A stretch of 64,000 nucleotides of DNA, from assembly GCA_951406725.2 (NCBI GenBank), contig OX597819.1:23684001-23748000 (forward strand), in the 5' to 3' direction. Both the position numbers and the translations under genes were made by a program. This DNA comes from Octopus vulgaris. Lineage: Eukaryota. Shown piece by piece: positions 48,763 through 51,920 of the stretch; within the stretch, counting starts at the first letter, position 1; the number at the start of each line of letters is the position of its first letter. The notes below the pieces were generated by a model that did no database searches, was not told the origin of the DNA, and saw nothing but the letters and a program-made list of their open reading frames with translations.

Positions 48763-51700
48763 CTTTTGATAGTATTCGTTGATAGATCGGCTCGTAAGTT
48801 AACTACTCATTTTATTGTGTTTCTCGAAAAGTTTCGTTGTAAATTTTGCACACGGAGTGTGTAAGACACTCAGCTATCGTCTGGGTGTATTTTCCGGAGG
48901 GGATTTTGCCCCTAGGGGCATTTTCAGCCTCAAATATATTTCACAATTTTTGCTGCAATAACTTGTTTTTTAACATAATGTCGGCGAAGCGTTTCTAGTA
49001 AATTACGAACGCTGTTCTCTCTCTCTCTCGTTTGCATCCTTTGTTTACGTTCTACGTTGTCGGAGTGTTTTAACTTTTCAAACGCCCAACTTTCGTTTGA
49101 GCCTTTTTTAGATATAGAAATCACCCATAAGGGCATTTCAATCTATTTTTATTTTTTTCTCTTGAAACAAAAAAAAAATAATAATGTCAAGAAATCTTAT
49201 AGTAGAAAAATATTCTACTATGTTTTCTGAAAAAGACTTTCCCAGTTTGCAAAATACAATCGGTAAACGCGCTGACAGTAAAATGGATAATACTGAAATC
49301 ACCACCACCACCAACATAAATGATAAAAATGAAACTGACGCAAATACCATTAACAACAACAACAAGAATAACAACAATAAAAAATGAAATAAATATTATA
49401 TCATCCAATAGTGAAGATATTATTAACATAAAAGAAACACCAGTACCTGAAAAAGCCACGTCCAAGAATATTTCAGATACAACAACAACAAAAACACACA
49501 ACCACAACAACTGCCAGAATAGAACAGTAAATTTCGCTGACACCCTGCGTCAGAAAAAAGAAATAATTAAATTTACAGATGAAGAGTTAATAGAAACGAG
49601 AGCACTCTTTACAACCTCAGGGCAGGATTTAGTATTGCATACACCTCAACACATATAAAGGAAGAAATAGAAAAAAACCCCAATTATATTTAGAATTATT
49701 AGAAAAAACAAAAAAACAAAACGAACAAATAACCAAAACAGAAATAGAGAAATGTGCTATAAAAATAATGAAAGTAAAAGAATACATAAACTGGGGTCCC
49801 CAGTTTAGTACAGTGGTGGTCCGCTTCCCTAACCAGGAAGTGGCAAAAACCCACTCGACAGAAACTTTACAGAACGATGAACTAATAATGATTCCTTATT
49901 ACAGAAACCAAAGAGTCAGTAAAATTAAAATAAAAAAATGTACCACCGGAGATACCTAACAAATGGATAACAGCAGCGATATGTTACCATTTAAAAACGA
50001 TAAACATTTTAGAAATGATCGTATTCAAAAATGACATTTGTGGTGGTAAAACAATAGGGGTAACCATCCAGATTGATGGGTCCTCTATCGAGAACCTACC
50101 TGATAGGATTCATTTAGAAAATGGGCAAAGCCTATATGTTGTAACGGAAGGGAAAAAGCAAAGATGCTACAACTGTGGCAGTCCAGAACACTTAATTGCG
50201 AAGTGCGTTCTAGGAAAAAAAACAAGAAAGAACAAATCAGAAAACAAATAAAAAAACCTTGTTACCAACACCAACACCAACACCACACTCAATTATGGAA
50301 CAATGCCAAGAAAACAACAAACCAGCAAGCAAACCCCAACAACATCACCAAGAAAAGAAACAGCACCAACACAATTACCGTTGACGTCGCAACCAATTAA
50401 AGATACTGAACCAACACCAGCACCAAGGACGACAACAAAAAAAAAACAGAAAACAGTGACGAGGAGACAAATTCTACCCCTAGCACCACAACACAAACAC
50501 CGCACAAAACATCAACAATTTCAACAAACATACATATTAACGCAAATGCTTTGCCTTTACCTCCTTCTGATTCGTCGGACTCGTCGTCCAACGACGAAAG
50601 TTCGACGGAATGGCAAATAACCACAGGGTGTAAAAAGAAAAGATCAAAAAAGCCCACCAAACAAGTAAGTAAAGCAGGGAGATATTTAACTCCGGACAGC
50701 ATCCCCTTAGACAATAAAAAATCAATGACCCCGCAAAACCACATACACAACTAACTGCAATAGACACAAACAATAAAAAACTAGCGGATTACATTGCATC
50801 CAACACGAACATCTGTGAAGATGACTTTAAGACAAACAATCATCCGCGCACCACACCACCGAAACACATCAGAATTGTACACATAACACAAACACAACAC
50901 CATACACTGAAAACCATATTTCCAAATGCGGTAGGGGGGTTTCAAAGATACCTCTCAAAAAGACTATTCAAACACCTCCTCAAAGACACTACAAAAGATG
51001 AAGAAAAAACTAAAACTTTCGAAATGAGTAAGTGACCTTCCCTCTTGCCTCTTGTCTCTTCCAATGTAGTGTGTGAAACACACATTTCTTAAACGTCAAT
51101 TATGCTTAAATTAGGTTGTGTGAATGCGCGTGGCTTGGCGTCGGCTTGGAAACAAGGTTACCTTCTAAACGACATCAAGTCACTGAACGTGAATATAGTA
51201 GCAATCAGTGAAACCAGACTCAGCAAGCCGCGGGCCCTCGCGTCCATGTTTGGCGATCAATTCGACATTTATTTTTCTCCCTGTCTGCCGAACATGGGTG
51301 GTGGAGGTACCGCGGTGCTTTTTCGAAAGAGTCTAAATGTAAATGTAAGAACAATATTCCTAGACCCGGAGGGTAGGCTGGTTTTCTTGGACGTGGATGG
51401 CAGAAATGGGTGTGCATTCCGTCTGATGGCAGTTTATGCACCGTCCTTAACGGGTCGGGCGGATTTCTTCAGACGTCTAGAGCTTTTCCTGGGTACGTCT
51501 AGACCTTTACTGTTAGTAGGGAATTGGAACGCTACCTTGAGACAACGAGAGGTAAGGTGACTTACTCATGTGTTCATTTTCGAACTGTCTGAGGTGACCT
51601 TGGTCTTTTTTGTAGGTTTTTCTTTCCAAGGCTACACCTAAACTGTGAACTTTATATATATATATTGCTGTTTTTATACACCACACAACCCACAGATCTC

Positions 51701-51820
51701 TATTGATCGAAGGTTTTTATTTTGTGTGTGTCCCACCCATCCCACCTCGAAAAGAAAAACCTCTACATTGTATTTCGTCCATTTTATTCTGTGTTTAGCC
51801 CTGTGTGGCCACAATAAAAA
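48763..51820 (+). mobile_element. Tx1/L1-clade non-LTR retrotransposon, internally deleted (RT missing), within (TATC)n
   Basis: Decayed ORF1 about 49184-51030 with zinc knuckle CYNCGSPEHLIAKC (CX2CX4HX4C); ORF2 APE start at 51102; 3' UTR ending AATAAAAA; (TATC)n at 48673-48762 and from 51823. Confidence 0.85.
51102..51560 (+). pseudogene. Truncated APE-type endonuclease (ORF2 N-terminus)
   Basis: MLKLGCVNARGL...IVAISETRL...GGGTAVLF...DPEGRLV.LDV...AVYAP...LLVGNWN, matching exonuclease-endonuclease-phosphatase motifs. Confidence 0.9.
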
Positions 51821-51822
51821 GG

Positions 51823-51920
<98 letters not shown>

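Follow-up and report, generated by a model that had tools for sequence, protein, structure and literature searches.

A candidate L1-superfamily LINE and SINE pair with similar 3' tails and GGTAT junctions in Octopus vulgaris

In a 64,000-nt stretch of Octopus vulgaris DNA (contig OX597819.1, positions 23,684,001 to 23,748,000; referred to as the window) the 3' end of a LINE resembles the tails of one branch of a SINE family, here termed SINE-B, and the sequence GGTAT directly follows the LINE as well as three of the four SINE-B tails. As the best explanation, with a probability of about 0.6, we consider that the lineage of this LINE donated the B tail of the tRNA-headed SINE and copies this SINE in trans, inserting it mostly just before GGTAT. 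SINE-B and the LINE are a candidate pair with modest support; the pairing is likely new and the kind of partnership is known.

TPRT in trans through a common tail is a textbook mechanism, and from established TPRT we infer the steps that go beyond the sequence facts. The ORF2 protein of an intact member of the LINE lineage would bind the tail of about 50 nt and nick the bottom strand, 5'-ATACC-3' would then prime reverse transcription, and the top strand would be cut 11–15 nt downstream. With a top-strand cut at this distance from the nick, the TSD would begin with GGTAT. The LINE in the window cannot itself mobilise a SINE because it has no RT and its endonuclease is truncated.

Anatomy and family of the LINE

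The window is repeat-rich animal DNA with a GC content of 23–43%. The LINE (48763–51820; like all its parts and flanks on the plus strand) is a dead element of the L1 superfamily. The first-pass annotation had placed it at 48763–51825, of which the start was kept and the end moved to 51820. Upstream lies a TATC array (48670–48761) that opens with GGTC, is broken by a 16-nt unique block and continues as (TATC)6; this flank is either a host microsatellite or an expanded TSD with a 5' extension. The 5' UTR (48763–49184, start accurate to 1–2 nt) is also covered by contigs from other copies. ORF1 (49185–51035) is split by frameshifts into several overlapping pieces and contains a CCHC zinc knuckle at about 50162–50206, whose Cys and His residues can be seen at their proper spacing in the translated sequence and whose match to Pfam zf-CCHC is weak (E = 6.7e-4; 20.1 bits, slightly below the cut-off of 20.8). 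The ORF2 remnant (51102–51539) comprises the first 146 residues of the APE endonuclease (Pfam Exo_endo_phos, PF03372, E = 6.5e-9); the remainder including the RT is missing. At one position the remnant reads GNWN, whereas the homologues in our alignments read GDWN or GDFN, so that the catalytic Asp is replaced by Asn. When the window was searched with 30 long homologues, no RT was found. The 3' region including the UTR (51540–51820) carries an AATAAA signal and a short A run at its end and terminates in AATAAAAA; its final 55 nt or so are the part resembling the SINE-B tails. It is followed at 51821–52062 by GG and (TATC)24 and then by TACC, TATC, and TGTC runs. A TSD of the LINE is not callable within the flanking TATC arrays.

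Two decayed SINE heads (48340–48640) are situated 30–300 nt upstream of the 5' array. Throughout the window, TATC runs of at least four units were counted 16 times on the plus and 0 times on the minus strand, and TATG runs of at least five units 35 and 5 times, respectively, some runs of either kind being parts of one array.

For the classification of the LINE we relied on its endonuclease. A profile of 24 close sequences had the human L1 endonuclease as top PDB matches (E = 2.4e-8), well above APE1/ExoIII. The endonuclease was matched by 461 protein clusters; a domain scan of eight homologues detected an RT in the three longest, with the architecture APE+RVT_1+zf-RVT, and the homologue P0164 matched L1 ORF2p with E = 1.7e-62 and R2 with E = 4e-14. 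Since the profile best matches human L1 and homologues bear an RT, the LINE is assigned to the L1 superfamily. Hence the initial label "Tx1/L1-type" is secure at the level of the superfamily, and membership in the Tx1 group is likely. A CCHC zinc knuckle in ORF1 is a feature of the Tx1 clade. Besides the weakly matching knuckle, the microsatellite flanks point to this group, as does the listing of L1-Tx1 as the L1-type class of O. vulgaris in the available part of PMC13282606. Neither longer homologues nor a close full-length ORF2 turned up in two protein searches, which is weak evidence. A search with a 33%-identical relative returned 15 proteins, none of them named Tx1, and among 298 pattern matches from a metagenome protein scan there was no relative.

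Further copies were sought in four public sequencing runs, from which 7776 contigs were aligned on 48751–51836; 32 of the 7878 aligned pieces are listed. A run search listed no RNA holder. Seven contigs of run X2 diverge exactly at 51539, where ORF2 continues in frame with homologue-like residues; therefore, the LINE in the window is internally deleted. As a hint only, since none of the listed contigs spans the deletion junction, the short form devoid of RT may make up a non-autonomous family with multiple copies. The summed contig depth close to the LINE's 3' end is about 1e5 in three runs versus about 50 for lone contigs. This suggests that the family has many copies, but depth is no count of them, and we rejected its use as such. 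Contigs cover the endonuclease part at least as deeply as the 3' UTR (51120–51836), and the loose end at 51539 is listed in one of the four runs only.

Two of the 32 listed pieces reach the 3' junction of the LINE; both are about 90% identical to the window, and their alignments run across GG(TATC)n as far as 51835–51836. Another two, with an identity of about 85%, are aligned across the 5' TATC, starting at 48751, and are perhaps one locus in two organisms. No loose end at 51820 is found among the 24 listed of 1139. The sharing of flanks so far comprises the LINE in the window, the two contigs at the 3' end, and the two at the 5' end through TATC. The extent of these alignments gives a hint that members of the LINE family are associated with (TATC)n arrays. 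Kojima's rule for sequence-specific Tx1 elements is a common target in more than 20% of the flanks.

The SINE branches and their 3' tails

A search with one SINE copy yielded 23 further matches. The aligned copies have a common tRNA-like head and core and continue either into an A tail consisting of ATT repeats or into a B tail. [quoted passage not shown] The first-pass description as a tRNA/Meta-core SINE was retained for the head. The "Meta-core" label was rejected as unsupported: in a comparison by eye we saw no match of the core to BivaMeta-SINE1 and BivaMD-SINE1 of bivalves and a faint resemblance to the 3' CORE part of BivaCORE-SINE2. In MetaSINEs a Meta domain of 66 bp directly follows the tRNA head; PMC4824008, as far as its text was available, does not support a Meta core in the SINE of the window. 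The A and B SINEs part right after the common core, which is the pattern that PMC4824008 describes for an exchange of tails between partner LINEs and which speaks for the favoured reading.

Four B tails are present, ending at 5334 (minus), 58765 (minus), 44881, and 45035. The first two belong to full-length copies (5334–5563 and 58765–58993, both on the minus strand) with clean TSDs that open with GGTAT, one of 12 bp (5322–5333 and about 5569–5580) and one of 11 bp. The other two are part of a compound on the plus strand (44649–45172). There, SINE head, body, and B tail (44649–44881) are followed by a SINE-internal 15-mer with GGTAT (44698–44712 again at 44882–44896), a partial SINE with the second B tail (44882–45040; 12-bp duplication 44918–44929 and 45041–45052), and the 3' part of an A-type SINE (45041–45172). 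These three SINE pieces, which between them have both kinds of tail, are enclosed by one 13-bp TSD (44636–44648 and 45173–45185) that opens with ATT. Either two B pieces are nested, and joined in register, in an A-tailed SINE, as marked by the 15- and 12-bp duplications, or template jumps occurred in one event. A degenerate pattern of the B tail had no matches in metagenome, prokaryote-genome, and viral collections.

Other repeats of the window were noted in passing. Two near-identical A-type SINEs (30075–30225 and 30704–30853) both follow ATT arrays, agree in an unusual 5' junction there, and are probably a local duplication. A further SINE family (10230–10600 minus, 19560–19710, 42920–43030, and 60500–60630 minus) differs in its body and has a short motif in common with the A/B core, where it matches the end of the latter. 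A dispersed repeat of another kind is present in two copies (44060–44175 plus and 58400–58530 minus), each no more than a few hundred bases from a SINE-B.

The coordinates and letters given in the first-pass annotation for tails and junctions were found to be correct, as was its observation that the LINE end resembles the SINE-B tails. When the final 55 nt of the LINE were aligned, anchored at the end, with each of the four B tails, the scores were 26, 24, 13, and 15. Among 1000 shuffles, 0, 0, 0, and 3 attained the respective score; among 8348 tiles of the window, sampled as every third of 25,042, the numbers were 0, 0, 3, and 0. For seven A-type tails with ends set by hand, which served as controls, 27–526 of 1000 shuffles reached the score. 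Significance was attained by every B tail and was lacking in most A tails. The identity is only moderate, with 35–36 matches in 59–62 columns and a core of 19/21 in two copies. Checked in this way on single copies, the claim that the similarity exceeds chance stood for the end-anchored comparison. It was weaker for the unanchored one, in which 0, 21, 15, and 0 of 2000 shuffles reached the LINE score for the respective B tail and unrelated window tiles did at least as well as the LINE tail for three of the four. The tiles with LINE-like scores at 19911, 47971, and 10351 are in no case a B tail followed by GGTAT.

RNA folding detected no conserved, covarying stem–loop between the LINE and SINE-B tails: the consensus fold of the five sequences has a common 4-bp hairpin, 0/4 pairs of which show a compensatory (two-sided) change, and the folds of the single tails disagree (z from −3.3 to +1.1). 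Rfam gave six matches over 44600–52000, none of which attained its gathering score and all of which fell in simple repeats.

It is quite improbable that the tails are alike through chance convergence of T/G-rich sequence with an A-rich end and that the GG after the LINE is coincidental. The unrelated tiles in the unanchored comparison would fit such a convergence, and the four B tails amount to roughly one test because they are related to each other. However, the anchored scores were hardly ever reached by shuffles or tiles, and a junction 5-mer as common as the one described below has a probability of about 1e-4. Judged from the alignments, the likeness is probably real and looser than a recent donation of the tail would give.

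GGTAT at the junctions

The sequence GGTAT stands directly after four of the five tails, starting at 51821 (LINE), 44882, 5333 (minus), and 58764 (minus), and T is found at position 7 in all four junctions. The tail ending at 45035 is the one miss. The first-pass count of four in five is thus right, except that the junction at 44882 does not represent an independent genomic site, because in both readings of the compound its GGTAT is the SINE's own internal 15-mer, also seen at 44698; we therefore rejected it as an independent target. The internal GGTAT is conserved in four other aligned head copies. In the two clean SINE cases GGTAT lies within the TSD, as had been reported. At 5334 the TSD is exact over 12 bp (14/15 extended) and at 58765 over 11 bp (13/14 extended); both start at the first G, and the bases upstream mismatch. 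Each of the two clean SINE-B sites has, in TATG/GT-rich sequence, another GGTAT no more than about 15 nt away (5575–5600 and 58740–58765, minus strand). The frequency of GGTAT in the window is 7e-4 per position, and the probability that at least three of four junctions have any 5-mer in common is about 1.2e-4, calculated post hoc from the 5-mer frequencies of the window. The presence of GGTAT at the junctions is not due to chance.

We considered three alternatives as to what the motif reflects. First, the machinery could target the SINE itself, with the conserved GGTAT of the head as main landing site and the other GGTAT sites as off-target look-alikes. Two of the four B tails do lie within a SINE, one of them at the internal GGTAT, and Tx1 families targeting other transposons are described in the available text of PMC4494074. 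Yet the second nested tail is situated at another position of the SINE, both clean copies and the LINE are outside SINEs, and template jumps during a single insertion could also explain the compound; this alternative appears very improbable.

Second, GGUAU could be the true RNA end of SINE-B and of the LINE, which pairs with the nicked target, so that a loosely specific endonuclease would suffice and the motif would be part of element and target alike. A tail repeat that matches the start of the TSD is the pattern expected from tail–target pairing, and the A-type SINE ends in ATT repeats with its single clean TSD opening with ATT. Moreover, other LINE copies continue into GG(TATC)n, yet none of the 12 other TATC runs in the window opens with GG, so that GG may be derived from the element; the junction at 44882 is compatible with a template jump at GGTAT microhomology. 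Against this, one B tail ends without GGTAT, the AATAAA signal and short A run of the LINE resemble what we would take for a processed end, and the 5' array of the LINE starts at GG, too (as GGTC). We regard this alternative as possible, if rather unlikely, in its full form. It nevertheless shows that the first-pass conclusion, according to which GGTAT inside the TSD belongs to the target and not to the element, does not follow, since an RNA ending in GGUAU and paired with the nicked strand gives identical junctions. Accordingly, the preference for GGTAT that had been ascribed to the endonuclease is not established, the pairing of the RNA end explaining the TSD motif equally well; the two, endonuclease choice and RNA pairing, are about equally probable as the source of the motif.

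Third, the LINE could represent a Tx1 family that, in the manner of Kibi/Koshi, targets (TATC)n, without being the partner, SINE-B using a different LINE and the tail likeness going back to distant ancestry. This would fit the TATC arrays on both sides of the LINE and apparently also of other copies, the absence of such arrays at all four SINE-B sites, and the moderate tail identity; microsatellite-targeting Tx1 groups are known (PMC4494074, available text). We hold it to be unlikely because the GG common to the LINE and SINE-B junctions is missing from the 12 other TATC runs and because the aligned likeness of the tails reaches right to where LINE and SINE terminate.

Returning to the reading in which the LINE lineage mobilises the SINE, as had first been proposed, the tail likeness and a GGTAT frequency beyond chance argue for it, whereas the moderate match and the apparent tie to TATC leave the identity of the partner less certain. 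As LINE copies apparently reside in (TATC)n and no SINE-B site is such an array, we slightly favour as working partner a sister family, whose preference for GGTAT-N-T would be looser, over the exact family of the LINE in the window.

Relation to known partnerships

The remark that the pairing is not recognised as described agrees with a search of the open literature, which found no octopus Tx1–SINE pair, no GGTAT motif, and no animal tail-sharing pair of the L1 clade; nor is such a Tx1–SINE pair mentioned in the available parts of PMC13282606, PMC8967140, PMC4758252, PMC5804259, and PMC10294476. A Tx1–SINE partnership as such is in print: in crocodilians, SINEU has been linked to Tx1-Mar by a common insertion preference (Kojima 2015, PMC4494074). 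From the accessible text of that paper, SINEU/Tx1-Mar is like the pair in the window in that a SINE is tied to a Tx1-group LINE via a common target and that nested SINE copies are common. SINEU differs in having U1/U2 snRNA heads and a Mariner target, whereas the SINE in the window has a tRNA-like head and a 5-nt motif; no significant LINE match is reported there for the 3' half of SINEU-1, whereas the 3' tail is the very link in SINE-B. The same text describes Kibi, Koshi, and the crocodilian (TTCC)n/(TTTC)n Tx1 elements, which like our LINE are of L1/Tx1 type with a microsatellite on both sides. In contrast to Kibi and Koshi the repeat here is (TATC)n, and its specificity is read from one copy and four contigs.

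Pairs within the L1 clade that have tails in common are ZmSINE2/3 with LINE1-1_ZM and SINEX-3_CR with L1-1_CR. In the available text of PMC3472496 and PMC3747384, L1-tailed SINEs make up 3 of the 58 SINE/LINE pairs surveyed (2012–2013), the three named being from maize/sorghum and Chlamydomonas. As in the window, the 3' end of these SINEs is common with an L1-clade LINE. The plant and algal pairs have a conserved stem–loop with compensatory changes, whereas the pair in the window is from an animal, matches more weakly, and shows no covariation.

In octopus, the tRNA-derived SINEs OR1 and OR2 are CORE-SINEs (PMC4824008, PMC4758252, PMC5804259). They are, like the SINE in the window, abundant and tRNA-headed; the available text of these three papers mentions no partner LINE or target motif for them. 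For O. vulgaris, SINEs amount to 11.6% and 13 L1-Tx1 families are recently active according to the available part of PMC13282606.

A more far-reaching version of the favoured reading is put forward tentatively. An animal Tx1 lineage with stringent recognition of the 3' tail may mobilise a very abundant SINE branch and impose a short GGTAT-N-T endonuclease preference, the short form without RT perhaps being a high-copy non-autonomous LINE. Such a preference would stand between the TT/AAAA of L1 and the targets of other Tx1 elements, which are long, and thousands of SINE junctions would then be a natural read-out of the specificity of a Tx1 endonuclease. If true, an animal case would bear on the loss of stringent RNA recognition en route to mammalian L1, and part of the expansion of SINEs in genomes of the octopus type would have the LINE lineage as its driver.
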